The notes beneath the pieces are model-generated. The model made no database searches, was not told where the DNA came from, and saw only the letters and a list, made by a program, of their open reading frames with translations. DNA of 62,962 nucleotides, filler included, from Aduncisulcus paluster (lineage: Eukaryota), in the NCBI GenBank assembly GCA_024181965.1. It is 6 parts of 6 records of this genome, joined end to end, with 100 filler letters (N's around TTAATTAATTAA, not from the genome) between each part and the next. Parts side by side here need not be neighbours in the genome. Positions count along the whole stretch, not along the records: positions 11,956 to 32,977 come from BQXS01009995.1; 5 more parts are not named here. One strand, written 5' to 3'. Below, one piece after another: positions 4,427-61,453 of the stretch (position 1 is its first letter; every line of letters begins with the position of its first letter). A program made the translations under genes and the position numbers.

Positions 4427-4761
4427 TTGAAGACTCGGAATCGTTATGAACTCGTTTATAAGCCTTATAACCCTGAGGGTTCCATAGAATTTGGCCCAAC
4501 CCATTGAAATAATACGCACCATTCAATAAATAATGCTTTTTTTTATGGTTGTTTGAGGTGTAAGCCTCATATTTCGGTCAATTATTATTATTATTTTGTG
4601 AATAAAAAATAACAAAATTAAAGTTATTTATCAATGCATTACGATTGTTCTTCAATTCAATTGAATAAACATTTTTTGATTTTGAGGGTCAGAAAATTAG
4701 GGGAATTTCCGAATAGGGGGGGTATTTCGAAATAAAAGGGTAATAAACTTTATTAGTTAGG

Positions 4762-4871
4762 AATAAACTTTATTGCCGACCAATTTCGAAATTGACCCCC
4801 AATTTCGAAATAGCTAGGGAATTAATGAAATTGCGCAGCAATTTTGAAATTGGTCGGCAATAAAGTTTATT
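4762..4871. mobile_element. 110-bp foldback/MITE-like element with 33-bp terminal inverted repeats
   Basis: AATAAACTTTATTGCCGACCAATTTCGAAATTG (4762-4794) vs reverse complement of 4839-4871, 1 mismatch; internal AATTTCGAAA repeats; no clear TSD. Confidence 0.6.
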
Positions 4872-7683: not shown

Positions 7684-8025
7684 CTATTCAACAATAGGCT
7701 CATCAATAATAACGGGTTCCTCGATAACAACGGGTTCCTCAATAACCTCAACCTTCTCTTCGACAGCGACTTCTTCAGCAGAGTCGATGAAGTTAGGCTT
7801 GACGTAGAAGAAGAAAGCAGCGACAGCAGCAGCGATGACAGCGAGAATCACAGCACAGACAACGTGACATTTCTTTCCACAGAGCTTGCACTTTCCACCA
7901 CAGCACTTCTTCTTGGATTCCTCCTTAGCTTGTTGCTTCTTGAGCTCAGCTTCCTTCTCTTGTTGAGCTTTGAGGGCTTTCATCTCTTTCTTGGAGAGTT
8001 TCTTTTCTTTTGGGACCTTAGCCAT
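7684..8025 (-). CDS. Small single-pass membrane protein (Lys-rich N-terminus, Cys cluster, acidic EEPVVI tail)
   Basis: 113-aa ORF with one hydrophobic helix (VVCAVILAVIAAAVAAFFFY). The copy at 8109-8385 is a gap-flank duplicate. Confidence 0.75.
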   Translation of the reverse strand: MAKVPKEKKLSKKEMKALKAQQEKEAELKKQQAKEESKKKCCGGKCKLCGKKCHVVCAVILAVIAAAVAAFFFYVKPNFIDSAEEVAVEEKVEVIEEPVVIEEPVIIDEPIVE

Positions 8026-8987
8026 GATGATCGTAACAAAAAAAAAGAAAATTCCAAGAAAATTTCTATGTAATAAATCCTTGGTTCANNNNNNNNNNNN
8101 NNNNNNNNCAACCTTCTCTTCGACAGCGACTTCTTCAGCAGAGTCGATGAAGTTAGGCTTGACGTAGAAGAAGAAAGCAGCGACAGCAGCAGCGATGACA
8201 GCGAGAATCACAGCACAGACAACGTGACATTTCTTTCCACAGAGCTTGCACTTTCCACCACAGCACTTCTTCTTGGATTCCTCCTTAGCTTGTTGCTTCT
8301 TGAGCTCAGCTTCCTTCTCTTGTTGAGCTTTGAGGGCTTTCATCTCTTTCTTGGAGAGTTTCTTTTCTTTTGGGACCTTAGCCATGATGATCGTAACAAA
8401 AAAAAAGAAAATTCCAAGAAAATTTCTATGTAATAAATCCTTGGTTCATGCACGTATTTAAGCAATCACTGTTGTGATAATTTGAGTATTTGATGTTTTT
8501 TTATCAATAAATTAAAGCTTTTTCCTCGGTGGGAATCAATATTCATCCCGCCCCTAAACAATCGTTATTTTCGAAATTATAAAATTAAGATCAAATTTAT
8601 TAGGAGATTTTAGAATTATCTTTTCAGATGAATAAGTTTTTCTGATTAGATCATTCTGATTGTCATTTCTGATATAATCCGAGAAGTAAAATATAGCATA
8701 TATTTTTACTCTATGATAATATTTTTTAATATTTTGAACTATTATGTTAAGTTTTGATGATAATATTATTGTATTCTGCTCAATTCACACCCTCACAATG
8801 ATTTTGGCCAATGGCTCAGTCAGTATTGAAATGTCAGTGAAATTGAAAAGTTTATTTATCATTATGGGTTGATTTGATCCGGAAAATGTTATTAAATTAT
8901 GATTTTGAATGAAAATTGTTGTGTGAATCTTGAAATTGACTTCTTGAGTCCATAACACAATTGTAAAATATATATAATAACACAAAA

Positions 8988-9455
8988 ATGATTTATTCGA
9001 TGTTGATTAGTAATATTGCCGGGTCATTGGTATTCCTGAAAGATTATTTTCTATGGCAAAAGGACAGACGTACAGACAAGCTGATTCCACAGGAAAGGAA
9101 ATTTAAACCCTTAAATCATGATATGACAACATCATTTTCCCCAGTTATTGGGGCCTTACTTCAGTTTGCCAAGCGAGCTGTGCCTATCGCTGCACCAACA
9201 ACTCGATGTGTATTTTTTGGTTGGAAAACGAAGGAATATACAGCTTATTATTATAATATTCCCACTGGAATTACTTTTACATTTCTTGTTGATCATGAAC
9301 ATTCTCGTGAAGATGTTTTAGTTGTTTGTAAACTAGTGTATAAGGCTTTTGCTGAATATGTTCTTCAAAATCCTGGGGTTGAAAGGGATCAGTTTATTCA
9401 AGCTCCATTATTCATCGAGAAAACAGACAAAATCATCAATGACTTTAACCGTTAG
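8988..9455 (+). CDS. Sybindin-family TRAPP complex subunit (TRAPPC1/Bet5 or TRAPPC4/Trs23)
   Basis: Longin-type N-terminus 'MIYSMLISNIAGSLVF', 'YYNIPTGITFTF', 'VYKAFAEYVLQNP...IQAPLF'. Confidence 0.8.
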   Translation: MIYSMLISNIAGSLVFLKDYFLWQKDRRTDKLIPQERKFKPLNHDMTTSFSPVIGALLQFAKRAVPIAAPTTRCVFFGWKTKEYTAYYYNIPTGITFTFLVDHEHSREDVLVVCKLVYKAFAEYVLQNPGVERDQFIQAPLFIEKTDKIINDFNR

Positions 9456-9881
9456 TCAGATTTTCTGTTCTCGCCAATTTCAATATTTTTAAAAGACCCA
9501 TAATTTTTTTTAATGGTGATTTACATAGTAAAACACTGAAAATTAGCTGGAAGAGTTATTATAGTACAGTATTATAGTGACTTCCAACTTGGAAGCATGT
9601 TGAACATGACACTGCGAGTGAGCGGCTCAGTCTGAGCCTCATTCTCGAGTCGAGAACATCGGATGTCTTGAAATTAGGAATCAACAATTCTTAATATGCA
9701 ATAATTTCACTATTAAAGAACAAGAACGCAATAATAAATTATGGGAAATATTTTGAATTTCTGAAATTAGTTGTGGCAGTCCTGTTTTGATTACATTCCA
9801 AGGTTCTTTGATCCAATTATATATAATATTTATTTTTTTTTTTTTGACAGCTTTTTTAAAAAATAACCTTCTTAATATTAT

Positions 9882-11507
9882 ATGTCTGTAACACCCCTTG
9901 ATATAGAAACTATTGTTCCTCCTGTTAAGCCAGCTGCACGAACAAAAATTGTTGCCACGATTGGCCCTGCTTGTAACACTGAAAGCAAACTACTTGAATT
10001 GTTTTCGACTGGAGTTGATGTTTTCCGCTTGAATTTTTCTCACGGAGAATTCACTGAGAAAGCTGAAGTCATATCAATTTTGCGCAAAATTGAAGGAAAA
10101 TCAAAGAAACCGTTGACAATTATGGCTGATTTGCCGGGGCCCAAACTTAGAATATGTAAATTTGAGATGGGTCAGACTATGCTTGAAAATGGATCATTGT
10201 TCACCTTTGATTCTCAAGTTGATGTGTTGGGAACCGATAGTAGGATCGCTGTCGATTCTCCTGAGATTTTTTCAGCACTTAAAGTTGGAGATCGTATTCT
10301 TTTGGATGATGGACACATTCAAGTATCCGTTACTGAGGCATTCACCGATAAATGCGTATGTAAAGTTATTTCAGGTGGTCCTCTTAAGAATAGAAAAGGT
10401 TTTAACCTTCCTGACAGTCCATTACCAGCCTCAATTCCAACCGAACAAGATAAGGAGATTATCAAGTTTGTTCTTACCCAAGATATTGATGCCGTTGCCC
10501 TGTCTTTCGTCCAAACTCCTGATGATGTTTCACGTGCCCGTGAGCTTATTGGTGATGATTTGATGATTATTTCAAAATTGGAGAAACCCACTGCTCTTGA
10601 GAGGAAAAATCTTGAGAGCATCATTGATCTTTCCGATGGAATTATGATCGCTCGTGGAGATATGGGCATTGAAGCTGATGTTTTGAAGCTTGCATTATAT
10701 CAGAAAGATATTGCAAGCATCTGTCGTCTAAGAGGTAAGCCCTGTATTATCGCAACTATGATGCTTGATTCAATGACCAAGGCTCTGATTCCTACACGTG
10801 CTGAGATTTGTGATACTGCGAACGCCGTTCTAGATTTGAGTGATGCAACAATGCTTTCTGCTGAGACTGCTGTTGGCAAACATCCAAATCACGTTGTTTC
10901 CTTCATGGAGAGTCTATTATCCAAGACTGAGCGTTCAGACCATTGGATGCGCAACGCTTTGATGAATCGGAAACAACTCGCTCACACTGATTCTCCGAAG
11001 GAATGTGGTAGTGTTCTTGAAGATCATACTCCTGTTGGTGTTGTTCATTCATTTAGAGAATCCGACTCTCTCCTAAAGTCTGCTCGGTTAATTATTTCAA
11101 AGAAAGATCACAAATATCAGCGGGATAGGATTGCCGATTCAATGGCTCAGGCTGCTGTCCTCGTTGGAGAAGCAATTCCTGCCCGAGTTATTGCTCTCTA
11201 TGCTCATTCTCTCCGCGATGTTCAGAGAATATCTCGTTTGAGACCCAATGCTGATATTCTGGCCATGACATCAGATCAACATGTTGCCCGAGGATTGAAT
11301 TTTATGTGGGGAGTGCATCCAGTATTCATGACTAAGGAAGAGTATGGACAACTTTCTTACTCAAAGATTGTTGATGTATGTAAAACTTTCCCAACTAGGC
11401 TTCATCTTCTGAAGGACGAGGAGAAGATCGTGTTCATTGGAACAAAACCTATCGATGTGCCAAACACATATAATAGGCTCCGTATTTTAAATGCAAAAGT
11501 TGAATAA
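9882..11507 (+). CDS. pyk: Pyruvate kinase, prokaryote-type (K+-independent signature)
   Basis: 'RTKIVATIGP', 'VFRLNFSHG', 'ADLPGPKLRI', 'IISKLEKP', 'GIMIARGDMGIE', 'PTRAE', 'MLSAETAVG'. Confidence 0.97.
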   Translation: MSVTPLDIETIVPPVKPAARTKIVATIGPACNTESKLLELFSTGVDVFRLNFSHGEFTEKAEVISILRKIEGKSKKPLTIMADLPGPKLRICKFEMGQTMLENGSLFTFDSQVDVLGTDSRIAVDSPEIFSALKVGDRILLDDGHIQVSVTEAFTDKCVCKVISGGPLKNRKGFNLPDSPLPASIPTEQDKEIIKFVLTQDIDAVALSFVQTPDDVSRARELIGDDLMIISKLEKPTALERKNLESIIDLSDGIMIARGDMGIEADVLKLALYQKDIASICRLRGKPCIIATMMLDSMTKALIPTRAEICDTANAVLDLSDATMLSAETAVGKHPNHVVSFMESLLSKTERSDHWMRNALMNRKQLAHTDSPKECGSVLEDHTPVGVVHSFRESDSLLKSARLIISKKDHKYQRDRIADSMAQAAVLVGEAIPARVIALYAHSLRDVQRISRLRPNADILAMTSDQHVARGLNFMWGVHPVFMTKEEYGQLSYSKIVDVCKTFPTRLHLLKDEEKIVFIGTKPIDVPNTYNRLRILNAKVE

Positions 11508-11855: not shown

Positions 11856-11955
11856 NNNNNNNNNNNNNNNNNNNNNNNNNNNNNNNNNNNNNNNNNNNNT
11901 TAATTAATTAANNNNNNNNNNNNNNNNNNNNNNNNNNNNNNNNNNNNNNNNNNNN
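11856..11955. other. Artificial contig-joining spacer N44-TTAATTAATTAA-N44 (also 32978-33077, 43614-43713, 49687-49786, 56920-57019)
   Basis: Identical 100-bp structure five times; the 12-mer gives stops in all six frames. Confidence 0.97.
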
Positions 11956-12492: not shown

Positions 12493-15348
12493 TTATATAT
12501 CAATGGTTGCTCTCCCTATCTCTTCTCCCTTGATATAGCAAATACACAAATGTGGACAGCATAGGACTTTCTCAATGGAATCTGGGACTCCCATGAAATC
12601 ATTGTGAATTCCCTGTCTTCTTTTCCTTATGAAAGTCGTCAGATAAGGAGGAAACACAATCAATTCAGATCCTTCACAAACCCCACAGCACTCTGCCTCA
12701 TAGTTGGGCAGCACAATAGACACAAAGACAGAATGAACGAGGGGAACTTCTTCAGGGATCATCATGTCTCGAATAAGATCATGATCATGTCCAACTGAAC
12801 CTTGGGCAGAATAATCATCATCGGAATCATCAGTGAAAGACTCTTTCAGATTAGAAGATAGAGAGTGGATATTCTCATAGAGGGCATTTTGAGAAGAATC
12901 ATCGGGAGCAGTTCTAATTTTAGATTCAGTAGGAATCATTCCTCTCTCCACACTGATCCTTTCCTCACTTATCCTTTCCTCTTCCTTTTCCTCTTCCTCT
13001 TCCTTTTCCTCTTCTCCTCTTTCTTCTTCTCCTTCCTGTTGAATAATACCTTCACATAAGCTGATATCACCTTCAACGACAACTCTACTGATAAAAACAA
13101 CGAGAGGTTTTGGAATCTGTTGTTTCCTATGATGGTCACTTGAACCAGTTCCTGATAGACTAGACAAAGGAGCTGATGATTTCACAATGTCCTGGCTCAG
13201 TGTAGCTCCTTCATTTTTGAATGCATTGATAATGTCTATCCTACTCTTCTTCTCAATATCTCTCACTTTCACAAGTTCCATTCCTATTCCATCGTATTCA
13301 ATGCACTTTCGGACAAATCTCGGTGTAAAGTCCCCATTTGGGAGGATATACTTGCTCGAAGCCCTGATCTGTCGCATTCCACTAACATCTCCACTCACAT
13401 CCCCAGTGTCTCCATCTGCACCTCCAGCCGTCCTTCTCTTCCGTTTCTCGGCATCAAGGACAACGGCTCTTCTCAGATCACCCATTTCATCCACACACAG
13501 TTCAGGTACAAGCACATCTTCTCCATCTCCAAGCTTGACTATGCTATCTCTGTGCTTGACCATAGATGGACTGTTCTGTCCAAATGGATGCATAATCCCA
13601 AGATCTACTCCTAGCTCAGACTCTGAGTGACTACGCATGAATGGCAGGTCAATATCTGTTGATTGTTTGCCACGAGGAGATCCTTCTCCTTTTCTTCTTG
13701 TATAATTTCTTCCAGTAATATCCAATTCTCCCCTCACGTGAGTACTAGTAGTATGCTTAGAGTATTGAATTGGATGCAAGAGAGAGATAGACTCATTATT
13801 ACCTATATCATCATTTCCATGTGTAGAGACGTATCCTTCTCCTTGAAGCTGCATGCGATCAAGTCTATGGCATGTCCCATCCTCTCCTTCTGCTCTATCT
13901 CCTTCTGCTCTATGTCTGGTAATATGTATAGGACCAGGTGTCTCTTCTCTCTCACTCATGTCTCTGTCTAATGGATTCCTGCCGTCACCTGAAGTGCCTA
14001 GAATAACACTCTTGGACTCACATTGCCTGATAGTTGTCCCGGAAACATATATAATACCCTGCCCGACTCCAACAATCCCGCTTTCCTTCTCTTTTTCCTC
14101 TTGCAGTCGTCTGATCTCCTCTCCTTTCCGCTGATCCTTCTCCACAAGCATCGTATACAGTGACAATGGAGGAGTGCCAAGAATAGGACTAAGGATTTGC
14201 TCTCCTATTTCTGCTCTCCTGACAGAGGGATGTTCCAGTGTACATGATCGACATCCTGTTGATATTGCCCCAATATGTGTTGATATTGCCCCAATATGGC
14301 TTGCAGAAGACTCATGTCCAACAGTGGTATGTGGTCTGCCTTTCATCCCCCCTCTTACCCTATCCAGGTCGGAATATGTTGGATTATCTTCATTATCTGC
14401 TTGCTCTTTTTCTCCTCCTTCAACTATGTGAAGAGCTATATCAAGAAATGATGTATTGGCGGTCTTTTGAGGCTCTAAGGGGGAGTATGGGGGACTATTA
14501 CATCGAGGGGAGGATGTGTGTGTATGTTTAGCTATTCCAATGGGTAATGGGCTCTCAATTGGCGATATACTCTTTCCTGAGTCACGCCTGGACCCTGATT
14601 GATTCCCCTTCATCCTTGAAAGCTGGATGGACAATGGATGGGGGGAGATCTGTTCTTGATGGTATGGAAGGGCAACATCAAGCATATCCATAAAGAAATC
14701 ACGTTGTATTTGCTCCGTTTCTTTGGGATTTGACTCTTGGTTTCCGGGTGCTTGAGTTGGTCTAGAAATCGCAGTAAATGAATGATTTGGGGGGTTTGAT
14801 TGTCCCAGCTTCTCTGATGTCATAGTAAAATCAAATTTATCACCCCCAATCGATTGTTTAGACGTTGATTTGCTTGCTTGATATAATTCTTGAAATGTTG
14901 TCGGCTTGGATTGAATTGGAGACGTTGGGGAGGTAAAAGGAATAAGTTTCTTTCTAATTTTGGTACCAGTTGAAGAAATTGGTCGTCGAATTTTTCCCTG
15001 CCTTTGAGACAAGGTCTTAAAACCTCTATTTCGACGTTTTCGAATTGGAATGGCACTATTTTCATTCATAAATGCTTGATCTTTCATAGGAATCATTTTA
15101 TCGGGTTCTATTTGTTCGATATCATCCACTATAACCTCTTTACATCTTCCAAATTCTGTTTTAGATGGTTTTGAGGTAGAAGGCATAACAGCTGAAGATA
15201 TAAATCCCGAAGAGGTTTCATGATCATCTCGATCTGATTTTTCCACCAAAGCCAGGTATTCCTTCACAATTTCATCATCATCATCACTTACATCCAACTC
15301 TTCATCCAATAAAACTTCTGAAAAAGAAGATTCTTCTATATTGCTCAT
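12493..15348 (-). CDS. Hypothetical low-complexity protein, 951 aa
   Basis: Long uninterrupted ORF; no recognisable family; short internal tandem duplications. Confidence 0.7.
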   Translation of the reverse strand: MSNIEESSFSEVLLDEELDVSDDDDEIVKEYLALVEKSDRDDHETSSGFISSAVMPSTSKPSKTEFGRCKEVIVDDIEQIEPDKMIPMKDQAFMNENSAIPIRKRRNRGFKTLSQRQGKIRRPISSTGTKIRKKLIPFTSPTSPIQSKPTTFQELYQASKSTSKQSIGGDKFDFTMTSEKLGQSNPPNHSFTAISRPTQAPGNQESNPKETEQIQRDFFMDMLDVALPYHQEQISPHPLSIQLSRMKGNQSGSRRDSGKSISPIESPLPIGIAKHTHTSSPRCNSPPYSPLEPQKTANTSFLDIALHIVEGGEKEQADNEDNPTYSDLDRVRGGMKGRPHTTVGHESSASHIGAISTHIGAISTGCRSCTLEHPSVRRAEIGEQILSPILGTPPLSLYTMLVEKDQRKGEEIRRLQEEKEKESGIVGVGQGIIYVSGTTIRQCESKSVILGTSGDGRNPLDRDMSEREETPGPIHITRHRAEGDRAEGEDGTCHRLDRMQLQGEGYVSTHGNDDIGNNESISLLHPIQYSKHTTSTHVRGELDITGRNYTRRKGEGSPRGKQSTDIDLPFMRSHSESELGVDLGIMHPFGQNSPSMVKHRDSIVKLGDGEDVLVPELCVDEMGDLRRAVVLDAEKRKRRTAGGADGDTGDVSGDVSGMRQIRASSKYILPNGDFTPRFVRKCIEYDGIGMELVKVRDIEKKSRIDIINAFKNEGATLSQDIVKSSAPLSSLSGTGSSDHHRKQQIPKPLVVFISRVVVEGDISLCEGIIQQEGEEERGEEEKEEEEEKEEERISEERISVERGMIPTESKIRTAPDDSSQNALYENIHSLSSNLKESFTDDSDDDYSAQGSVGHDHDLIRDMMIPEEVPLVHSVFVSIVLPNYEAECCGVCEGSELIVFPPYLTTFIRKRRQGIHNDFMGVPDSIEKVLCCPHLCICYIKGEEIGRATIDI

Positions 15349-15879
15349 ATTATATTTACCTTTTTCTATTCAAATTGAAATTACATGAACAATTTTGGAA
15401 CAACAATATGTTGTTCGTCCACAAAAAAGAATTTGATTTTTAATGATTGGTGGAGATTAAAAAAATATCTGAAATTATAATTCACNNNNNNNNNNNNNNN
15501 NNNNNAGAAGGCATAACAGCTGAAGATATAAATCCCGAAGAGGTTTCATGATCATCTCGATCTTATTTTTCCACCAAAGCCAGGTATTCCTTCACAATTT
15601 CATCATCATCATCACTTACATCCAACTCTTCATCCAATAAAACTTCTGAAAAAGAAGATTCTTCTATATTGCTCATATTATATTTACCTTTTTCTATTCA
15701 AATTGAAATTACATGAACAATTTTGGAACAACAATATGTTGTTCGTCCACAAAAAAGAATTTGATTTTTAATGATTGGTGGAGATTAAAAAAATATCTGA
15801 AATTATAATTCACGATTAAAACGTATGTTTATTTTGCAATATCATGAAAAGTATTATAAGAAAAATGATTAATTCCCAT

Positions 15880-18458: not shown

Positions 18459-19969
18459 ATGAGTTTGATTGCTGGAAAATATGAAATTTTGCAATCCCTT
18501 GGTAGTGGGACCTATGGGACCGTGTACAAAGTAGAATCTACTGATAAATCAAAAAGAAACGTATGTTAATTTGAAATTTTTGCTAAACAAAGTTTTTATA
18601 AAAGCTACAAACGTAACGCCAATATATTTCTTCAATAGAAAACCTTTGCTTGTAAAGAAATCGATTATGGTAAAATGAATGATAAAGAAAAAGAACTCTT
18701 AGTTTCGGAAGTTAACATTTTACGTGAGTTAGACCACCTTCATATTGTTCATTATGTTGATCGGTATATTGAAAAAGAGAAGACTAAATTGTATATTATT
18801 ATGGAATTCTGTGGTGGTGGTGATTTGGCACAGTACATCAAGAACCACCGTGCCAAACGTCACTATGTTAAAGAAGACCGCATTTGGAATATATTTGTTC
18901 AGATTTTGATGGCTTTATATGAGTGTCATCATCANNNNNNNNNNNNNNNNNNNNAAAAAGAAACGTATGTTAATTTGAAATTTTTGCTAAACAAAGTTTT
19001 TATAAAAGCTACAAACGTAACGCCAATATATTTCTTCAATAGAAAACCTTTGATTGTAAAGAAATCGATTATGGTAAAATGAATGATAAAGAAAAAGAAC
19101 TCTTAGTTTCGGAAGTTAACATTTTACGTGAGTTAGACCACCTTCATATTGTTCATTATGTTGATCGGTATATTGAAAAAGAGAAGACTAAATTGTATAT
19201 TATTATGGAATTCTGTGGTGGTGGTGATTTGGCACAGTACATCAAGAACCACCGTGCCAAACGTCAATATGTTAAAGAAGACCGCATTTGGAATATATTT
19301 GTTCAGATTTTGATGGCTTTATATGAGTGTCATCATCATAAACCCAAGAAAGTTCTTCACAGAGATCTCAAACCAGGAAACATAATGTTGGATGAGGATG
19401 GAAAGATCAAGATTGCCGACTTTGGTCTTGCACGTACCCTTGGTCAGGAGTCTCTTGCAAAGACTACCGTTGGAACTCCTTTGTATATGGCTCCTGAACA
19501 GATCGGTAAAGCCGCTTATGATGAGAAATGTGATGTGTGGGCCCTCGGATGTGTTTTATATGAGCTCGCTGCTCTTTCTCCTCCATTCACTGCCAAGACC
19601 ACTGATTCTCTCCATGCAAAGATCAGGCTGGGAAAGTATCCTCCTCTCTCCGATAAAGTGTACTCACGGTCATTAATGGCCATAATTGACAAAATGCTCT
19701 GCAAATCGCCCCAAAGAAGACCCACAATTGGGGACTTGCTTCGCGATGCAGCCGTCCAGCCCTATTATAGGGAATATAAGGAGGCTGAGAGAGACACTGG
19801 CTTGAAGAGTCGTGAAGATCTTCTGAAACAACAAGAGCTTGCCCTAAAGAAAGAAAGGGAGCTTATTGAGAGTGAAAAGAGAGAGTTAGCTCGCAAAAGG
19901 GAAGAATTGAAAAGATTATCTGAGCAATTAGATCGGAGAGAAGCTATCTTACGAAGGAGAGGCTTCTGA
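18459..19969 (+). CDS. NEK2: NIMA-related kinase, NEK2-like; intron 18561-18638; 404-bp gap-flank duplication inside
   Basis: Exon 1 MSLIAGKYEILQSLGSGTYGTVYKV... splices (GTATGT..AATAG) to KTFACKEIDYGKMNDKEKELLVSEVNILREL. HRDLKPGN, DFG, GTPLYMAPE and a C-terminal coiled coil follow. About 342 aa after removing the duplication. Confidence 0.93.
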
Positions 19970-20134
19970 GAAGGACAATAAATATTATTTATTGAATAAA
20001 TAAAAACAAACGAACAACAACAATGATTCAGCGAACTTAAAACTTGATTCACAGCCTTTGATCGCCGATCTGCGTTTGACCCTAGTTTGAAATTCGAAAA
20101 TCCAATTTTCTCTCTGTTTGAATTTCGGGTCGCA

Positions 20135-22444
20135 ATGGTATTTTCTTTGGAGTTGAGTATGTTGTTTCACCACAAAATCATCATGATTTATTTGATTTTT
20201 TGATTCCTTAACGATTATCTTACAATCGATAATTTTATTTTTATTTTGTCTTATTTCATCTTAATTTGAACAGTTACAAATATTGTATTGAAGTTTATTT
20301 CCTTTTTTGCGACTTTATATTTTAATTCTATTCTTCCATCTGATGTTAGAGTATGGAATGAAATCATTTGGCAATTCTTGTTTGTTTTCATTGTTGAAGC
20401 CTGTAAATATGCTGCCAAACGTGTTAACGCTCGTATGACATTTATTGTTGGTCTCAACAGAGGTGATACGGGCGAAGATTTACCCGATGTTGTTACGAAA
20501 GATGAATATCTCGCTGATGATTCCAAACCTGATACGGGCGAAGATTTACCTGATGATGTTACAAAAGATGAACATCTCGCTGATGATTCCAAACCTGATA
20601 CGGGCGAAGATTTACCCGATGATGCTACTAAAGATGAACATCTCGCTGATGATTCCAAACCTGATACGAGCGAAGATTTACCCGATGATGCTACAAAAGA
20701 TGAACATCTCGCTGATGATTCCAAACCTGAACAAACTGGTTCAACCACTGAAAAGAATGAAAAAGATTATATTCTCGTAAAAGTCAAGATAACCAAACAG
20801 AGAAACGCCATGACGGCTTCAATCGGTCATTTATACGGTGCTGCCACTGCCCTTGTCCTCTATGCTTTGATTGCAGGCTCCCAAATAGGTCTACAATACC
20901 TTGCGAAGGTTGTTCCCAAGAAGATTGTTAAGAAATACCTTCTCTGGGCTTTCCGTCGTCCCGATGTCCCCTTTGGAGTTGGTCTTAAGCTTGAGATTGT
21001 CTTTGGAAGCATAATTTTAGAGAATATCCTCAATTTCTTCTATTCTTACTATTCTAAACTTGGTATTGACTGGTCTGTCATGATATCTAGGATTGTTGGC
21101 ACTGGGGCCAGGGTTGGGATTGTTTATTGTGCCCACTGGTTACATAATAATGACCTTTCCAAGCTTAGACGACTTAAACTTGACTCAGAATCCATGATTA
21201 TCTCCCTAAGTTCCTGTAGTTACCTCATCTTCCAGCTTGTTATGGCTCTTGTGTTGTTCTTGTGCCATTTCAAACACTTCAAATCCCAAGCCAAGTACGT
21301 CAAAGATGATTGCATGATGAGTGGGTTCAGTAGGTTTGAAATGACTGAAAAGCAGATTGCCAGAGCTGGCCCTGAGGCCGGAACCATCAAGAATAACTTC
21401 AAATACCTTCTTCCAAAGGGTATATTAAAGTCTGCTGTGATGCGTATTCCAGAATTACCAATGCTGTTTATCTCTCTCAAATTGCACTTATCCATCGGTG
21501 ATTCCAACGCCAGCAATGAGAATGAACAAGTGTTTGCTCCCCTTCGTCTAATGTTGATGGCACAGACCTTTGTGTATGCTTTCAAGAATGTTGCAATTGA
21601 TCCGTTGTTGCGCAAGCTTCAGTGGAGTGTGTATGAACGAATGGAACACATTAAGACACCCGAGAAGGCTTCTGTCTTTGCTGCGTCTGTTTGCCGTCGT
21701 CTTGTGGGACTGTCGTTTGGCCTTATGCTCCTTCCTTCCCTTTCTATCCCCATATCACACTTGATTGGACCTCTCTCTTTCGTTTTATTCAACAAGATAT
21801 TCTCCAATGAAGAAATTGTGATGCATTACGTTCATTTAATGATAACAATCATTCCATTTATTCGTTATTTATTCACATTCATGTGCCTCTCTTCAATAGA
21901 AGAAGCTGTGTATTATGTATCCGAATATTTCAAGGTCCTCCAGGCCAAGAGAGTATCATTACTCACACAAACACCAAAGAGCATTCGTAATTATTTCAGA
22001 CTTGGAATGCCTGGTGTGTGTTCTGTATGTGCCGTCATTTGCATTGGCATGACCTTGTATTTCATTGATATGCTTGATTCAGATACATTTAAACCGATTG
22101 AAGTCTACGCCACATCCATGCACTTGTGTGCCATTACAATGGTGGGATATTTCATGATAATGCTCTCTTCTGCAAGCGGTCTCGTATCTCATTTGACTAC
22201 TCAGTTATACAAACCATTTATCACTATATTTGGAACATGTCTGTTGTTCTGTGTTGGATTATTCGTTATTAATTGGTTTACTTTTGGAATGAGCAATGTA
22301 TTTGGGAAGGGAATAAGGTTTATTATTAGTATCACTGACTTTAATGATACTTATCTTGCAATGGCTTGTTTGTCAGGCCTGTTCGTATGTGGAATTGCCG
22401 CAATGTTCTTTTACAAAAGATTTCTCCAACCTCTGACTCAGTGA
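20135..22444 (+). CDS. RFT1-like multi-pass membrane protein (MOP flippase superfamily); intron 20157-20273
   Basis: ATG 20135 plus a GTATGT..AACAG intron gives MVFSLELITNIVLKFISFFATLYFNSILPSDV...FIVEACKYAAKR, resembling the Rft1 N-terminus (..LFLSREAFRRA); many TM helices. Confidence 0.6.
20464..20730 (+). repeat. In-frame 66-bp tandem repeat x4 (DTGEDLPDDVTKDEHLADDSKP)
   Basis: Four near-identical units inside the RFT1-like ORF. Confidence 0.95.
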
Positions 22445-22644
22445 TAATGATTATCAGATAATCAATGGCATGATAAAATAAATTATATTGTGCCACAACT
22501 CAGTTGTCAACTGGCTGCCGCAGCCATCGCCAACATCACTGAATCAGTCACTGATAACTTGAGATCTATCGTGCTCACAGTTGTGAGTCACAACAAATTA
22601 ATGATATTTATTCCAATCAAAAAGAGGATGACTCAAAAGAAAAA

Positions 22645-24574
22645 CTAATCCCGTCGTGCTTCTTCTTCTTCTTCTTCTTCTTCAGAAGATGAAGTATCAG
22701 CTTGAGTTGCCCCCATTTGAGTCTGAGTACCACCCATTTGAGTCTGAGTAGCCCCCATTTGAGTCATCCCCGTTGCAATAAACACTTTGGGTGTATCTCT
22801 TAACACCTTTTCCCTTGCGGTCTGTGTTCGAGAAGGTGCACCTGATGTTTTATCCTTGTCTTGTTTTTTCTCAGAATCTATATATAAATCCCTACGATCT
22901 CCTCGATCTCCTGTGATACGCTTTACCATCTCCACTATCCGCTCGTTCCAGCATACTCTACGTCTGCACTGAGGACATTGGGTATCAACAAGAGAGAGAG
23001 AGGGGATAAGAGGAGGAAGAAGAGGAGGAAGGCGAGTGGAAGAGGAAGAGGAAGAAGAGGAGGAAGAGGAAGAGGAGGAAGAGGAGGAAGAGGAAGAAGA
23101 AGAGGAATGTTTAAAACTCAATCCATGAGCACATTTTGATCTATACGATTTGTTTGATTGGTATCTATAGGCTAAATCAATGGGTGGATTTGAATCGTAA
23201 GCAGACGTTGAAGTTAAAGAAGTCTGCTCAGACGTAGAATATTTCTCTTTGATCTCTCTGTCTTGTTCCAAAAGATAATACCGGGCAATACAATGAAGAT
23301 GAGTCAAAAGAGAACAATGGGGACACTGCGAGAACGTGTGTGTCAACGGAAGGAGACAAATCGAACACACAAGCTCGGAAGAAGATCTTTCGGCCGATTC
23401 TTGACTCTCCACGGATGATGAAGTTGAAGCATGAAGGGGAACAATACAAGGAGTTGCAGGAATGCTGCAGTCAAATTCATCAACACAATATTCGTCATCG
23501 TGGCTTGCTTTTGAATGGGAATATCTCCTTTTTGCAGAGAGCTTTGATTTTTTTGTTGATATCGCTGTTTGATGGCCGCTGGAACACTTTGACGTTGGAG
23601 GAATTGAACTGTGCTTTCTTGTTCCTTCCCGTTTGGACATAGATATTATCCTTTCATCAGGATCTGACAGGGAATCACACCGGTAATGCGACTCCTCGGA
23701 GCTGTCATCACTGCCTTCAACACCAAGATCCCATTCTCCATCATCTTCATCACTGTGGTCATCTTTTTGATTATAAATGACAATTCCACTGCCATCTTTC
23801 CCGCGCCGACGTGTTACGGTGAGAAACGAACACATATCGAGTGGAACCCTTGAGAAAGTGATCGTGGCTGGTAATGGGGGATATAATACATCTCCGACTC
23901 TAAATTGTTTCCCAATATAACCTCCAACACTCATTGTCTCAGCATAAGTCCAATTTACATTCAAAGGTTGAACGTTCCACTGGGATTTACGGAGAAGCAA
24001 TCCAAGAACAAACATGTGGAAACGAATACTCTTGACAAAAGAATGCTGTGGAATATAATCCTGAACATCAGCAACTTTCGCTGGATGCTGCCATTGCCAC
24101 TCAAATTGAAGAGCTGCTGTTCGACAGGAGAATCCACTCACAAAACAAACCATTTTCCAAGGTCTTTTCCTTTTGGTCTTTCTAGCACCTTGTTTTATCT
24201 CACCATTATGTTGGCGAATACGNNNNNNNNNNNNNNNNNNNNTGGAAACGAATACTCTTGACAAAAGAATGCTGTGGAATATAATCCTGAACATCAGCAA
24301 CTTTCGCTGGATGCTGCCATTGCCACTCAAATTGAAGAGCTGCTGTTCGACAGGAGAATCCACTCACAAAACAAACCATTTTCCAAGGTCTTTTCCTTTT
24401 GGTCTTTCTAGCACCTTGTTTTATCTCACCATTATGTTGGCGAATACGTCTTCTTGGATTAATTGTAAATCCAATGTAACACTGATTGTGGAAGCGAGGA
24501 TGTTGAGAAACGAGGCAATATACACCACAAAACCCATTTAGCCCAGAGAAAGACCTGGCACCCTCACTTTCCAT
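22645..24574 (-). CDS. SLX1: Structure-specific endonuclease SLX1 (GIY-YIG + RING), split by a 226-bp gap-flank duplication
   Basis: 'GVYCLVS...[34 protein letters not shown]...[12 protein letters not shown]'; C-terminal CSIC..CPHC..HLHC..CPQC. About 567 aa after collapsing the duplication. Confidence 0.93.
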
Positions 24575-25113
24575 CTAATTTTAACGATAAGAACCAGATG
24601 ATATTTTCTCGTTGCGCAGAAATAATGATTCCGTGGTTTCAAATTAAAATCCCGGATTAAAAATAAAAGGGCCTTTTTGACATTCTGAGATGGATTTTTA
24701 CAAACGCATAATGCATAATTATTAATCATGTTTATGATAAATATTCAATTAACATGTTATAATTTATTTTTTCCATGCTTTCGATAACGAAAAAACTTTT
24801 TTCATTTGGTCTGGACTCCAGAGCGGGCCGCCGAGAAACCCAATCTTTTGGAATTATTGAAAGATCATTCTAAAACGCAGATGATCAATTTTGCACTTTG
24901 CAAGGTGCCACAAACCCAAGTTATTGTTCCACCGGACAAAACTCATGAAAATGTTGTAATACCACGGAAAGAATGGAAAATAAAATAGTTAGAGATCCAT
25001 TTTGAGCAGAATTAATAAGAAAAAATTAAGGTTTTAGGTGATTCTGGCGGCGCCGGTAGATAGTCTAGTGCAGTTCTTTTTGCCCCTTCTTTCTTGAAGG
25101 ATAAAGGCAGTTG

Positions 25114-32110: not shown

Positions 32111-33077
32111 GTGTTTATCCACTCGTAGATGGCTTTTGAGCGTTGTATATCCAGAACTCTCTTCTCTTCACTCCTTTCCTTCTCTTCTTCTTTCCTTTTT
32201 TTTCTCTATTCCACCGCCAATAACCTTAATAATATAATAATAAATCCCACCACGCCCTATGATGCCAATCAATATTTGGACTTTTGGCATTGCCCTGTGG
32301 TGGGATTTAATAGTTTAATAGAAAAAGAAAGTCTCCTTTTCTCCTTCAATTTTTTTTCTATAATGAGAAACGAGGACCTTGACAGGATCATCAAGGTCCT
32401 CAAATTTTGGATTCCATTTCTTTTATCATAGGTCCCTTCTTCATTGCCTTTCTTCGCATTTCCAACATCTTGGTTTCTTCCTCTTCTGCTTTGATAATCG
32501 TCGAACGCGATACAATGTCCATCATAGTTTCTATATCTTTCTGAGCTGATTGCTAATGCAAGATCGGGGATTTGGTCACTGGAAGAGAGAGGGAAGGACC
32601 AACGAAAACGTTGCCGCACGCCCGAAAAAAATGGATGGGATATACGGTGGAGTCATCTGTTACTATCATTGGGCTATTTCTCCTCTTCTTCTCAACTCGT
32701 TTCCAAAGTATAAGTGACATCTAAAACACTGGAACCTACTTTAATGGCTTCTGCGCATCTCTTCTGCACCTGCAAGTAATAGCCAAACAAACATATGTTG
32801 GACTTTCATATCCTTCTTGTAACTCAACAATATCTTTGGTAAGTGTGGCCAAAGAAGCAAGCGATGAGCCTTCATTGTTCTCCCAACTTCGTTCTGAGTT
32901 CTCTTGGAATATTTTCCACACAACATTGTAGGGATATGGCCTTGATATTGCCTGTGAGTGCTACCCCATCAATGAATNNNNNNNNNNNNNNNNNNNNNNN
33001 NNNNNNNNNNNNNNNNNNNNNTTAATTAATTAANNNNNNNNNNNNNNNNNNNNNNNNNNNNNNNNNNNNNNNNNNNN

Positions 33078-33816: not shown

Positions 33817-34407
33817 CTATAAAACACCATCGGGGGTGCCACAAAACATTACTAAAGTGAGAGTTTCTGATTCTTTGTTATATTTACCAGTAGTCTTTTC
33901 AGCCTCTACTTTTCGAGGTAATGTTGTTCTAAGTGCATATTTAGAGCCAAGTATCTTTAACACATCATTTTCTATATCAACAGAAAGTGCTTCGTATGGT
34001 TCACCTGGAATTTTGATTGTGGCAACAAGATATTTACAATAGGCATCAGAGCCAGGGACAAGTCCTTCAAAGCCCCCATACATTTCTTGGGCTGAAACTC
34101 TTTGTCTTGGATGAATTTCATATTCTGGAATCTTCTTTCCCTGGGAAATCTGAGTCCATTCATCCTCTTCTTCAATCTCATCATGTTCCCATATCTCTCC
34201 AGATAATAACGAATCATGTTTATGGGCAATTTCTTTTTGTTCTATATCAAATATTCGTTTCTTTTTTTCCTTTTCTATAACTTCTTTTTGCTCCATTCGA
34301 TATTTAGCAACGGTTTTTGGTTCACCTCGCATCAATGATTGTTCTTCCCTTTTTTTGCTTGCTTTTGCAGCAGTGTCGAGAATTTCTGCCAATTGGAGTA
34401 CTTCCAT
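33817..34407 (-). CDS. DNAAF6: Dynein axonemal assembly factor 6 (PIH1D3/Twister)
   Basis: 'PEYEIHPRQRVSAQEMY...CKYLVATIKIPG...LPRKVE...KYNKESETLTLVM' matches PIH1D3. Complete from ATG 34407 (196 aa); 34476-34745 is a gap-flank duplicate. Confidence 0.85.
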   Translation of the reverse strand: MEVLQLAEILDTAAKASKKREEQSLMRGEPKTVAKYRMEQKEVIEKEKKKRIFDIEQKEIAHKHDSLLSGEIWEHDEIEEEDEWTQISQGKKIPEYEIHPRQRVSAQEMYGGFEGLVPGSDAYCKYLVATIKIPGEPYEALSVDIENDVLKILGSKYALRTTLPRKVEAEKTTGKYNKESETLTLVMFCGTPDGVL

Positions 34408-34814
34408 ATGATCCCTGTTGGAGATGGAGCGAAAAAAAAAGACTGGTTTGAAACTNNNNNNNNNNNNNNNNNNNNTCCCATATCTCTCCAGATAATAACG
34501 AATCATGTTTATGGGCAATTTCTTTTTGTTCTATATCAAATATTCGTTTCTTTTTTTCCTTTTCTATAACTTCTTTTTGCTCCATTCGATATTTAGCAAC
34601 GGTTTTTGGTTCACCTCGCATCAATGATTGTTCTTCCCTTTTTTTGCTTGCTTTTGCAGCAGTGTCGAGAATTTCTGCCAATTGGAGTACTTCCATATGA
34701 TCCCTGTTGGAGATGGAGCGAAAAAAAAAAGACTGGTTTGAAACTTTCAACGAATGCAATCAACTCTTTTGATGAACAGCTTCGTTTTTGTTGTGATATG
34801 AAAATATAAACAAA

Positions 34815-36685: not shown

Positions 36686-37628
36686 ATATGATTTTGTTTG
36701 CACCCCGTTTTTTTCCTTCTGCACGAATCTTGTTTGCTAAATTTTGGAATTTGCATAATTTTCGTTTATAATTGCAAAAATTAATCCTTCTATACCGCCT
36801 TGAGAAAGAATAACTCTTTTGTTTCTCTCAAACTTCCTGTAACATATCAATAGCCCTTTTTTGCGCTGTTTTAGATCTAATTTAAAATGATTTCACTTGA
36901 TGGGGAACAGTTATGGGAGGAGTAATTGTCTTTGGCCTTGTAATCAAAACAGAACCATTTCGATCTGCTTGCCACAGTCTTGTCATATTTTTGTCGTCAT
37001 TTCCTCCTTGAAACTCACTTCATAGTCGCATATTGTGGTGATATTGTGGTGAAAATTATCACATTGTTTAATTATTATTTGCAGGAACTGAATCTTTCGA
37101 ATGATCATGAATATGAAATTCTTCATCTCCTGTCCAGCTTCATATTGAATTGGATGGATGTTATTTATATCGAAATTGCACACGAACATTTGGTTTTAAG
37201 ACTGTATTTTATAAAATAGGACTTCTTATTGAAATTTGTTCTATTTTTAGAAAATCTATTTTTAGAACCTCTCCTCCGTAATCGCGCGAAATTACCCTAG
37301 ATATGGAAGATTTGTTGTTTTTAATTGTTTATTGGCTGCATTTTGTTGTGCTCTCATCAAATTCTTTCCTCATCGGTCCTATTTTCAGTAAATCCACATT
37401 TTTTGAATTTGTTTTCCTCTCAGATTCTGACCTGACCCAGTTTCAGAAGAGAAATGGTTCTCAAAATTACATAAATAGCCACGAATTGCAATTTGTTAAA
37501 CGAAGGATTTCGTATTGATTTCCATGAAGTTCATTGAATGAACAGAAAATAAATCTTCATGAAAGTTTCTTCAGACTCTGGATTCCAGACAAAACGAGAT
37601 GTATAATTAAAATAGCTATTTATTAATC

Positions 37629-40600
37629 CTATAATTTGAATCCACTCACCTTTCCCCTCAATAACTCTGTAAATGCCTTGCTTTCTCTTGAATGAATGGA
37701 ATATTTCACATTATAATCAGAATACCTTCTCTTACTCCGTTCATGAGACAAAGGAAGAGATTCCTCTTGAAGTTCGTGAATTATAAGAGAGGCTTGATCA
37801 ACACGACCAGGATATGGAGAATGGGTAATGGAAGAAATTGAATCAAATACGCTTGGACTCGAAACACCTTCTATTTCTCCGGTTCTTTCTTCTTCCAATC
37901 CAGAAATTGGGGAGAACTGGGGGAAGATTGCCGGAAAAGCAAATAAAGACGATCGAGGGAGATATTTCGGATCTTTATCCTCAACAAAGAAATATTGGTC
38001 TGGAAACGAGAGTGATTCTGTGGATTTTGGAGGGAAAAGAGGGAATTTCTCATCACAAGAATCCTCACTGAGATCCTCCTCAAAACATAGAAGATCATCA
38101 AGAACAGCCTTCTCGTGAATACGGATATCCCGTTCGTTCTTTAGATAATAAAACCGACGTTTAATCCGATTAAGAATTATATATTCCAAAAATAGATCAG
38201 TAACATGTTTTAAATTGTCTTCAGATCCTATATTTCTATTCTTAGAAAGTGAGAATGAAGCAACCTTTAATTCCTGTGAGGAATCAGATAACGGAATGGA
38301 TTCGAAAGATTTCTCTTTCATAACGGTTGTTTTGAAAATGTCAATGTATTGAACACTTTTTTGTTCTTCTCCTTCTTTTTCAAGAGAATTTGTTATAATT
38401 GATTTCTCAACCGATTTATCTGAAATCGGAATCGAATCGTTTTTCGCCTCCTTAACAGTGTCTTCAAAGATATTCAAAGCAGATGATAACGGTTTTGGAG
38501 ACATTCCAATACTGGTTGTCGATTCAAGGTCTTTTCTCGAGGATTGTACAATAAACACCTTTTTATCATGTCTTATTGGCTTTGAAATGGTTACCTTTGG
38601 TTTGGATGTTTCTTGAACAACACTGACTTCTCGCTCATCAGAATCCATTACATTTACAATCAATGATTTAGAAATATCGGCTGAATCTTTCGATTTTGTA
38701 TCAATATATTCTGGACCATTGCTCTCAAGTTTCTCTTTGGCAAGTTTCTCTTTGGCAAGTTTCTTTTGAGATCGCATTTTCATCCATTCAGCCATTTCAG
38801 TGTCAGAATCGACAATCCTCCGATCTCTCCTCTGCTTGGGTGTTTCCTCACTCTCTTCTTTTTTGGAGTCCGATATCGTTGAATCATTAGTAGGCTGAGG
38901 GATTACAGCAGAAGCAGAAGAACTCGGAAAAATACGAGAATATTCAGTATCAGAATTCGTAAAAGATTGGGACGTTGTCGATTTCTCTTCTTTCTCAGTT
39001 TCAGTCCCAAAAATAGAACCAAACATGGAGGAAGATGCCCCATCAGAGACAACAGAAGAAAAAATTGAATGAGTTGGGTCAGAATCTTGAGGAATAACCC
39101 CAAATAACCCCATTCCCCTTTTTGAATCAGTCACAGAAATTGAAGTTNNNNNNNNNNNNNNNNNNNNCGTTGAATCATTAGTAGGCTGAGGGATTACAGC
39201 AGAAGCAGAAGAACTCGGAAAAATACGAGAATATTCAGTATCAGAATTCGTAAAAGATTGGGACGTTGTCGATTTCTCTTCTTTCTCAGTTTCAGTCCCA
39301 AAAATAGAACCAAACATGGAGGAAGATGCCCCATCAGAGACAACAGAAGAAAAAATTGAATGAGTTGGGTCAGAATCTTGAGGAATAACCCCAAATAACC
39401 CCATTCCCCTTTTTGAATCAGTCACAGAAATTGAAGTTGAAGGTGACCGTATATTATTCTTTTGGCCAAGAGATTCATATTTTGGAGGTTTCGAGAGATT
39501 ATCTTTCCTTTCGTATTCCTTTAGTTCTTTCTCAATTTCTATATCAGGAGAATATGAAGAAGATTCCTCATCGTTTCCTTTTTTCTCACCTTGAAATTCG
39601 GTGAATTTCTGTATACGATCCGGAATACTTTTAAGATTAAGACTGATGCATCGAATAAATTTTGGAATTTTAGCATTCTCACCACGCCAAGACACCTGAG
39701 AAAATTCCTCTTGTTTTGAGAAAGTATTAAATTTAGAAATAACATTTACCATTCCACAGTGGGAATGATCCCCTGCCGATTGATGTGCTGGCTGTCCCTG
39801 TCCGCTTCTTTTCTTCTGATTATACTGCAAGTGGTAGAAACAAAAACTTATACTTGAATGCATTGATCGAGTGTGTTCCTTAGGTTTTGTAAGGACAATT
39901 TTCTTTCCACCAAGGGTATCGGAAGTGATCTTTGAATGTAATGACATTGCCAATGCTTTCAGCGATTCGGGAGAGAAAGCTGTGTGAGACAAAAGGGAGT
40001 CAAGTACATCCAACCTGGGAGGAGGGGAATCTTCCTTAAAAGATAATGATATCGCTTGTTTCATCGAGGCACAGGCCTCTAAGGATGGGAAGACACAGCG
40101 GCCATTCTCGTTGGTAACAGCGTATACATGACTTTTGGGATAATACTTTGAAATGGATTGATGAGAGGTTGAGGGGTCAAATACTTTCTCGAAAATACCA
40201 TATAAATCTAAAAATAAACTTGCGTGGGATGATGGACAACTCGCTGGATCATTTTCAGCCCCATATTTCGGTTTGACAAGATCACAACCACCCTCCTCGC
40301 GACAAGAGATGTGGGGATGCCCATAAGGGAGTGGATTAAGCATCAAAAGACGACTTAGGGTATCAGCTTTTAATAAATGAGGATAAAACGGCAAGGATTG
40401 CGTATTTGGAGGTTCTTGTGACTTCTTCATCCTGTCTTGGATTGACCCGATGCTCCACACCATCGATGCTCTAAGTCTCGTAACAGCAGGCTCAAGAAGG
40501 CAACAAGCAGGCACACTGAACTTAAACTTATGGATGAGATTCACTAGAGAATATAGATCATGACTGTCAATGTACATGACAGCCTGGAGAGCAGCAGCAA

Positions 40601-43613: not shown

Positions 43614-43713
43614 NNNNNNNNNNNNNNNNNNNNNNNNNNNNNNNNNNNNNNNNNNNNTTAATTAATTAANNNNNNNNNNNNNNNNNNNNNNNNNNNNNNN
43701 NNNNNNNNNNNNN

Positions 43714-47353: not shown

Positions 47354-47463
47354 CAGGGGTGTACATCTGGCGGTCACTTGAAATTGTAAAATGCAGCCAC
47401 TTGGCAGCCAATTGCAGCCAAATTTCTCGTTGGCAGCCAGCGGCTGCAAGATGTACACCCCTG
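47354..47463. mobile_element. 110-bp hAT-like MITE
   Basis: Perfect 15-bp TIRs CAGGGGTGTACATCT / AGATGTACACCCCTG; four internal GCAGCCA motifs; 8-bp flanks AATATGAT/TATATTAA match only 5/8. Confidence 0.75.
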
Positions 47464-47709
47464 TATATTAATAATATGTCATATTCAATATGATATTTGA
47501 AATATCAATAGCAATACTAGTAAATTAGTAAATATTGATATTTATCGATTAAAATATATTTTTTGCTGAAGTTTATTCGCTTCTTAATCCTGTTCAGTTT
47601 TTTGAATAGAGTTGTTAGCCGAATAAGCAAAATCAATCACAATATTCTCATATTTGTGACCGGAGTTTTTTGATTATACAAGATTTTTGTTTCTTTTTGA
47701 ATATTAATA

Positions 47710-49686: not shown

Positions 49687-49786
49687 NNNNNNNNNNNNNN
49701 NNNNNNNNNNNNNNNNNNNNNNNNNNNNNNTTAATTAATTAANNNNNNNNNNNNNNNNNNNNNNNNNNNNNNNNNNNNNNNNNNNN

Positions 49787-56919: not shown

Positions 56920-57019
56920 NNNNNNNNNNNNNNNNNNNNNNNNNNNNNNNNNNNNNNNNNNNNTTAATTAATTAANNNNNNNNNNNNNNNNNNNNNNNNN
57001 NNNNNNNNNNNNNNNNNNN

Positions 57020-61055: not shown

Positions 61056-61453
61056 TTTCGGTGCGTTGTATTTTGTTTGCCCGCTTTCGCTTTATGACAA
61101 AAAATAATGGTGATCAGATTTTATTAATGCCCTTTGAAAATCAATTAAATTTAAATTTATCCGATTGATTTCGAAGGAGCGTGAATATTGAGTAATAAAA
61201 GAGAAAAGCAGAGTCTAAAGTCCTTATTTATGTGCTTAGAACTTAAGTGAAGAGTCTTCATAACAAACTGATCGAAAATACGAATATTCTTGAGATTTGA
61301 GTGCTTAGAATCAATTCACAATGCTGTGAAAAGGTATGAATGGCAATATTTATTGTGTAATTGTTTGATATAGCTGAAAGTTTGAGCCATCACAAAAAAA
61401 AAAAAAAAAAAAAAAAAAAAAGCAAAAAAAAGGGCAGAAAATTACAAAATTAA

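Follow-up and report, generated by a model that had tools for sequence, protein, structure and literature searches.

The chain of short perfect palindromes described here lies in the genome of a free-living relative of Giardia, Aduncisulcus paluster. It sits in a 200-nt spacer separating two convergent genes, an ORF at 20435-22444 and a gene on the opposite strand to which we refer as SLX1-like (Table 1). The upstream ORF contains five 66-nt tandem repeat copies at 20398-20793, and it gave no usable protein match in the Atlas. Partial contigs from other loci match 21909-22084 within this ORF and suggest that it may belong to a paralogue family.

All counts reported below refer to one 63-kb stretch of DNA (the window), in which six contigs are joined. 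The joins (11856-11955, 32978-33077, 43614-43713, 49687-49786 and 56920-57019) are artificial, and the window is not a continuous piece of chromosome; the linker at each join consists of 44 N, a 12-nt word carrying stops in all six frames, and another 44 N. The window is eukaryotic, with few introns and a G+C content of approximately 37%. Gene models are simple ORFs, and those recognized include SAC3, a Nop14-like protein (a single weak match in the protein search), lipin, a TAPT1-like protein, a NEK kinase, TRAPP sybindin and pyruvate kinase, in addition to a Ty3/gypsy element. The NEK kinase ORF has 100% identity to an NCBI protein assigned to A. paluster. Neither an Rfam family nor a tRNA was detected anywhere in the window. 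The draft genome of this free-living fornicate comprises 29.4 Mb in 25,863 contigs (PMC9933649).

A direct duplicate of 206-300 nt, 100% identical, is present on both sides of every 20-N gap in the window (Table 1). These exact duplicates look like a scaffolding artefact. They interrupt ORFs (e.g. the NEK kinase and the SAC3-like gene) and count features twice, and they were excluded from the innermost-spacer, direct-repeat, mismatch, arm-length and centre-base counts given below.

Table 1. Positions of genes, palindromes and related features in the window. Spacer-1 denotes palindromes whose two arms are separated by a single base
Feature	Position	Strand	Remarks
Gap-flanking duplicates	7749-8408, 15178-15805, 18551-19254, 24017-24448, 34187-34729, 38877-39438, 53784-54381		
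Upstream convergent ORF	20435-22444	+	669 aa from first ATG; no Pfam family; TGA stop
Downstream convergent ORF	22645-24294	-	GIY-YIG domain; similar to SLX1 structure-specific endonuclease subunits
Putative poly(A) signal AATAAA	22477-22482	+	33 nt past stop of ORF 20435-22444
Putative poly(A) signal AATAAA	22607-22612	-	33 nt past stop of SLX1-like gene
Spacer-1 palindromes in chain	22495-22507, 22501-22513, 22512-22526, 22538-22548, 22543-22555, 22580-22594		
Exact triplet, 8-nt unit	22442-22463		First 7 nt, reverse complement of all 8, last 7
Exact triplet, 7-nt unit	22495-22513		Overlapping palindromes 22495-22507 and 22501-22513
Isolated 15-nt palindrome (7+1+7)	22512-22526		2 nt in common with preceding palindrome
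Near-triplet, 7-nt unit	22537-22555		Palindromes 22538-22548 and 22543-22555; second pivot uncomplemented, original base kept
Near-triplet, 8-nt unit	22574-22594		Left joint one base short
37-nt core	22543-22579		Also at another locus of same genome, flanks differ
Exact triplet, 10-nt AT-rich unit	19976-20003		Directly before mapped poly(A) site
Two spacer-1 palindromes, 2-nt overlap	4456-4481		30-55 nt past stop of ORF 2534-4426
Four unrelated 13-15-nt spacer-1 palindromes in a row	9581-9656		126-201 nt past stop of ORF 8988-9455
Two spacer-1 palindromes	37529-37589		40-100 nt past stop of SAC3-like gene (-)
110-nt element with 15-nt TIRs (47354-47463), then four AT-rich spacer-1 palindromes (47465-47507)	47354-47507		
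Spacer-1 palindrome	61248-61260		Mid-spacer, with ORFs 59610-61055 and 61454-62245 converging on it; +193 and +194 nt past their stops

Structure of the palindrome chain

An initial annotation of this locus described six spacer-1 palindromes between 22495 and 22594, with three direct-inverted-direct triplets among them, making up half of the convergent spacer. All six palindromes read exactly as described and lie where that annotation placed them, and the three triplets are real. The estimate of one half is fair, with palindromes covering 65 of the 100 nt in 22495-22594 and 95 of the 203 nt in 22442-22644. In addition, we identified a fourth triplet at 22442-22464, whose arms measure 7 and 8 nt and which extends over the TGA stop codon of the upstream ORF.

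The chain was compared with 3000 dinucleotide-preserving shuffles of the same stretch. For arms of at least 5 nt, 22495-22594 holds six spacer-1 palindromes, against a shuffle mean of 0.18 and a maximum of three, and none of the 3000 shuffles reached six. When arms of at least 6 nt are required, five palindromes remain, compared to 0.06 in the shuffles. Across 22442-22644 the corresponding counts are nine against 0.30 (arms of at least 5 nt) and seven against 0.09 (arms of at least 6 nt).

Contigs crossing the spacer are available from X1 and X2, two coded runs of one sample; X2 is RNA-type by our guess, and the contigs show neither strand nor level. The X1 contig over 21629-22627 and the X2 contig over 21629-22648 both have no differences to the window. 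Because the X2 contig matches the whole of 21629-22648 in this way, the chain is not an error of one assembly. The chain region folds better than shuffled sequences on both strands (z of -2.1 for the + strand and -3.8 for the - strand), and the + strand fold pairs the two ends of the chain, weakly (z -2.1). We also considered the chain as a MITE and rejected this assignment, since there are no convincing terminal inverted repeats or duplication around 22495-22594.

The triplets follow a simple rule. For a unit S of m bases, a triplet opens with S short of its final base, continues with the reverse complement of the whole of S, and closes with S short of its initial base. Triplets that obey this rule exactly are present with m = 7 (22495-22513), m = 8 (22442-22463) and m = 10 (19976-20003), and three more have m = 5. 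Two near-triplets, at 22537-22555 (m = 7) and 22574-22594 (m = 8), fit the rule with one deviation each. As a control we searched for the even-centred form, which occurs in one AT-only case at m = 5 and in no case at m of at least 6. Adjacent unrelated palindromes at 9581-9608, 4456-4481 and 22501-22526 have no duplicated unit in common. A central-base rule for pairs of adjacent palindromes, drawn from a single-break model, was also tried and discarded; it fits two of three pairs, no better than chance.

Excess of one-base centres in non-coding DNA

Perfect palindromes with arms of at least 6 nt and at least two G/C per arm were counted in the 21 kb of the window that lie outside ORFs. For spacers of 0 to 5 nt the counts are 1, 21, 4, 13, 5 and 4, and the means of 100 shuffles range from 3.6 to 4.4; the expectation is 4.4 +/- 1.9 for spacer 1, and the single palindrome at spacer 0 compares with 3.6 expected. 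When each palindrome is given its innermost spacer and duplicates are removed, 20 palindromes fall at spacer 1, and spacers 0 and 2-13 hold 1, 4, 6, 5, 1, 3, 5, 6, 3, 2, 1, 2 and 4. The excess is confined to the one-base centre, with spacers 0 and 2-13 at background.

A spacer-1 excess and a sharp drop above arms of 7 bp had both been predicted in the initial annotation, and both are borne out at the scale of the window. The excess is exclusive (20 versus 1-6 at the other spacers from 0 to 13), and arm lengths peak at 6-7 nt and then fall to a single case at 8 nt. With at least two G/C per arm, spacer-1 palindromes number 9 at an arm length of 5 nt, 13 at 6 nt, 6 at 7 nt and 1 at 8 nt; without this filter, arms of 5-9 nt give 35, 27, 14, 2 and 2. 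Given the base composition, AT-rich palindromes are common. C or G occupies the centre of 29 of 45 palindromes (15 of 20 once the G/C filter is applied), compared to 33% C+G in the non-coding background.

Few of the palindromes appear to be decayed. Among arms of 7 nt there are seven perfect palindromes against 0.8 expected and 45 one-mismatch copies against 23.4 expected, and approximately 13 of these 45 are perfect arms of 6 nt. That the palindromes are mostly perfect, with little decayed excess, fits a recent origin. In two instances (24810-24822 and 37577-37589; 9756-9768 and 41085-41097), palindromes at unrelated loci have identical arms and a different centre base.

Location relative to gene 3' ends

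The palindromes lie predominantly downstream of genes. Thirteen are located no more than 250 nt after stop codons (4158 nt in total) and none is located within 250 nt before start codons (4930 nt); one is in a stretch that is both 3' and 5' flank (377 nt), and six are elsewhere (11,689 nt). A palindrome lies within 300 nt past the stop in 13 of the 19 genes with a readable 3' flank, or in 7 of 19 when at least two G/C per arm are required, and the other six of the 19 have no palindrome within this distance. Distances from stop to palindrome range from 4 to 242 nt, and the sequences are all different.

One poly(A) addition site could be mapped. X2 behaves like RNA in that one of its contigs ends at 20010 with 11 unaligned A residues and its depth is 0 over 20016-20191. 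This places the site at about 20007-20010, 7-10 nt after the AATAAA at 19995-20000. Of the AATAAA motifs in the 28-nt triplet at 19976-20003, two are on the + strand and one is on the - strand. Judging from the mapped site, the AATAAA at 22477-22482 is read as a putative poly(A) signal of the upstream ORF, and the one at 22607-22612 is likewise a putative signal of the SLX1-like gene. The X2 contig across the whole spacer was set aside as a map of 3' ends because it ends at a low-complexity repeat. For each gene of the convergent pair the first GC-containing palindrome begins at +51. Since AATAAA is found at +33 and the first GC-containing palindrome at +51 in both genes, the 100-nt chain probably fills the space between two predicted cleavage sites.

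A second genomic copy of the core

The core of the chain (Table 1) has a second copy in the genome. Its flanks are known from one X1 contig, whose unaligned ends of 30 letters precede 22543 and follow 22579. Inside the window itself we found no second copy of the spacer or of its 31-nt core. The copy elsewhere does not contain the 13 nt at 22580-22592, and past the position equivalent to 22579 it continues with the 7 nt that follow 22592 in the window. The inserted 22580-22592 corresponds to the reverse complement of the adjacent 8 nt followed by a partial repeat of those 8 nt, and the pivot of the palindrome at 22580-22594 is the complement of the base present in the second copy. This palindrome is a derived inverted duplication, because the second copy is without those 13 nt.

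The second copy represents a site without the insertion, rather than a site holding an element. The palindrome at 22543-22555 is common to both copies. The palindromes to the left of the core differ between the two copies, a pattern that speaks for repeated events at one place.

Transposon-related sequences

The initial annotation had attributed the chain to cycles of hAT insertion and excision. hAT elements make 8-bp target-site duplications, with T in second and A in seventh place of their target consensus. The units inferred from the triplets are 7, 7, 8, 8 (with one base lost) and 10 nt long, and the hAT consensus was rejected as a description of them, as it is not common to these units. 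Direct 6-mer repeats are about twofold enriched at all distances of 6-24 nt, with no peak at 8 nt (6 versus 2.6, like the other distances from 6 to 24 nt). Neither a hAT nor a MULE domain was found in any of the 32 ORF translations of the window.

Only two elements with inverted ends of at least 15 nt are present in the window, at 4762-4871 and 47354-47463. Both are 110 nt long and MITE-like, and neither has a clear target-site duplication (0 and 2 nt). The element at 4762-4871 is a foldback structure whose arms of 26-45 nt end in AATAAA-containing palindromes with a one-base spacer. The ends of the element at 47354-47463 begin with CAGGG, which we take to resemble hAT ends, and this element directly abuts the chain at 47465-47507.

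Possible origin of the palindromes

The palindromes have the appearance of young inverted duplications in which a few bases were copied from a local template, each pivoting on a single base. Our tentative interpretation is that the chains are scars left one upon another by hairpin-ended breaks, for which hAT-like excision is the foremost candidate source, and we assign this reading a probability of roughly 0.4. Excision by hAT elements is taken as the leading candidate because it is the only documented source of an exact one-base-pivot scar. Work on Hermes is said to show that hAT elements nick one base into the flank, giving an odd centre. A study of the hAT elements Ac/Ds describes their footprints as palindromic insertions centred on the complement of the element-adjacent base, and in S. 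cerevisiae the arms reach 20 nt and 88-89% of joints use microhomology (PMC5873905). Hairpins on the flanking DNA are reported for hAT, Transib, MULE and RAG enzymes (PMC5499845). The window agrees with the footprint description in that spacer 1 alone is enriched and the pivot of 22580-22594 is the complement of the base in the second copy.

The sequence data show the signature, its derived state at one site and its location; the hairpin intermediate, transposon and repair route that we infer would act as follows. A broken end would be closed as a hairpin with one strand shorter than the other by a base; a nick roughly 6-7 bases away from the tip would open it, and rejoining would proceed through the short homology made by this off-tip nick. 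If each flank carries S as a target duplication and each hairpin opens well away from its tip, the extensions would share the reverse complement of S and anneal. The product would then be S without its last base, followed by the reverse complement of S and by S without its first base, which is the triplet rule. If only one end keeps its extension, a single palindrome of 13-15 nt would result. Such scars would accumulate in the short stretch beyond the poly(A) signals. Metamonads are reported to be without Ku70-Ku80 and DNA-PKcs, and alternative end joining is given as full in C. membranifera and partial in some other metamonads (PMC8516963). An absence of classical end joining in the host lineage would favour long extensions and homology-guided joints.

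The hAT reading thus stands only in part. The one-base complement pivot, the spacer-1 excess, the arm peak at 6-7 nt and the insertion at 22580-22594 agree with it. However, the unit is not a constant 8 nt, direct repeats have no 8-nt peak, neither a hAT gene nor a target-site duplication is seen in the window, and the location at 3' ends is not what the model predicts. Both the 3'-end restriction and the C/G pivot require extra assumptions in a hAT model, namely a bias in insertion or tolerance and a target preference.

A less probable but possible origin, to which we give some weight, is independent of transposons. A DNA polymerase might turn around at forks or breaks that are stalled in a transcription-termination zone: the strand would cross at the next base pair, copy back a few bases and perhaps cross again, leaving either S, its reverse complement and S, or a single palindrome, and the stalling G:C pair would become the pivot. 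A one-base turn-around tied to termination zones could in this way write palindromes of 13-15 nt, which may serve as two-way RNA polymerase stop signs. It would account for the spread of unit lengths between 5 and 10 nt, since no fixed target duplication would be involved, for the preference for C/G pivots (29 of 45 versus 33%), for the location almost only past gene ends and between convergent poly(A) signals, and for the observation that no transposon is seen at palindrome sites in the window. The inserted bases, at 22580-22592 and in the triplets, repeat sequence lying no more than a few bases away as its reverse complement, as a template-switch mutation requires, and template switching is accepted as a source of new perfect inverted repeats in a study of rRNA (PMC8794818). 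However, no documented template-switch process yields only a one-base pivot, and among the events attributed to switching in that study 4-nt loops dominate (56%; PMC8794818). General switching should also produce spacers of 0 and 2-13 nt and a range of copy-source distances, and these spacers are at background here. If, instead, the palindromes were selected as two-way elements past the poly(A) signal, for example in RNA polymerase II pausing or termination, with inverted duplication as their route of birth, the contrast between 13 in 3' flanks and none in 5' flanks would be in keeping with this, as would their presence within 300 nt of the stop in 13 of 19 genes (7 of 19 with at least two G/C per arm), the matching spacing of AATAAA (+33) and first GC-containing palindrome (+51) in the convergent genes, the palindrome at 61248-61260 in the middle of another convergent spacer, the palindrome at 22543-22555 shared with the second copy of the core, and the better folding relative to shuffles (z of -2.1 and -3.8). 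We nevertheless regard selection as unlikely. The palindromes all differ from one another in sequence, and one spacer holds a stack of several unrelated ones; six of the 19 genes have none, and there is no Rfam match in the window. Moreover, selection on structure would neither favour spacer 1 over spacers of 3-5 nt nor preserve perfect pairing at the innermost positions; since no hairpin can close on a loop of one base, palindromes that are perfect down to one centre base do not derive from hairpin selection.

Ordinary alternative end joining, in which a polymerase theta-type enzyme copies nearby sequence after an end snaps back, is more doubtful still. Metamonads are reported to be without Ku and DNA-PKcs and partly to keep alternative end joining (PMC8516963), and the roughly twofold enrichment of short direct repeats at all distances of 6-24 nt is compatible with such repair. 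However, an end can snap back only around a loop of several bases, and the offsets of templated insertions vary; instead of direct and inverted stretches at varied offsets we found an inverted class restricted to spacer 1. Chance, base composition, or an artefact of assembly or sequencing can hardly be credited. The window does hold assembly artefacts in the form of gap-flanking duplicates and artificial linkers, and AT-rich palindromes are frequent by composition. However, the later counts omit duplicated stretches, the X1 and X2 contigs agree across the spacer with no differences, none of 3000 shuffles reaches the observed count, and the excess holds when at least two G/C per arm are required.

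Relation to known systems

Elements at transcript ends offer one comparison. The hairpin rule for transcript 3' ends in Mimivirus and the bidirectional intrinsic terminators of bacteria involve real loops, usually once per gene. Similar to the palindromes described here, they lie after genes and between convergent genes and are usable from both strands. In A. paluster, however, AATAAA is present, unrelated palindromes are chained, and six of 19 genes have none. Hairpins of the V(D)J or RAG type have no one-base offset and yield even-centred palindromes, whereas spacer 0 is not enriched in the window (1 versus 3.6 expected). They resemble our case in that off-centre opening leads to palindromic addition, as described for V(D)J P nucleotides and Transib/RAG-type hairpins (PMC5499845).

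The hAT footprints of Ac/Ds in S. cerevisiae, Arabidopsis and Candida albicans are likewise palindromic insertions made from flanking bases, with a one-base centre that complements the original base and with microhomology at the joints (PMC5873905). Their arms are several to 20 nt long in yeast, whereas the arms reported here fall in a narrow range of 6-7 nt, and the scars are natural and stacked up to seven per 200 nt. The palindromes also differ from Ac/Ds footprints in having a unit of 7-10 nt instead of 8 bp, a pivot that is mostly C/G, a location almost only past gene 3' ends, and no element seen at or near most sites. Template-switch mutations share with our palindromes the production of a perfect inverted copy of adjacent sequence in one event; the events reported for them favour loops of about 4 nt and are unlinked to gene ends (PMC8794818), and the pivot in A. 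paluster is exactly one base.

Palindromic break-repair footprints are known as a kind. In the literature searched we found no description of palindrome chains in A. paluster or in fornicates; the genome announcement (PMC9933649) does not mention them, and the hAT footprint literature searched covers experimental footprints only. As far as that literature goes, the density, narrow size, C/G pivot and confinement to the zone after the poly(A) signal are new. If the palindromes are repair scars, they would constitute a readable natural record of how hairpin-ended breaks are mended in a eukaryote that branches deeply and lacks Ku-dependent end joining. Repair would then have written much of the little intergenic DNA it has, as in the 65 of 100 nt between the two poly(A) signals described here. 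If no transposon is involved, the one-base pivot, C/G preference and 3'-end restriction would together form a mutational signature, of which the literature searched holds no description.

Other features of the window

The Ty3/gypsy element lies on the - strand at 50876-55591 and carries a gag-pol ORF of 1461 aa and two 95-nt LTRs. Because both LTRs are identical, the insertion is recent. We had considered the LTR pair as a mutation clock, and identical LTRs give no information for that purpose. A chromodomain fragment of a second element is present at the end of a contig (56546-56917, - strand). The best relatives of the pyruvate kinase gene (9882-11507, + strand) are alphaproteobacterial or from other bacteria, at 35-47% identity, with no close eukaryotic relative among the best 120 matches listed. 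A protein search aimed at placing the organism likewise yielded only relatives of bacterial type for this enzyme, with identities of 40% or less. On this pattern of similarity, the gene may be a lateral acquisition.
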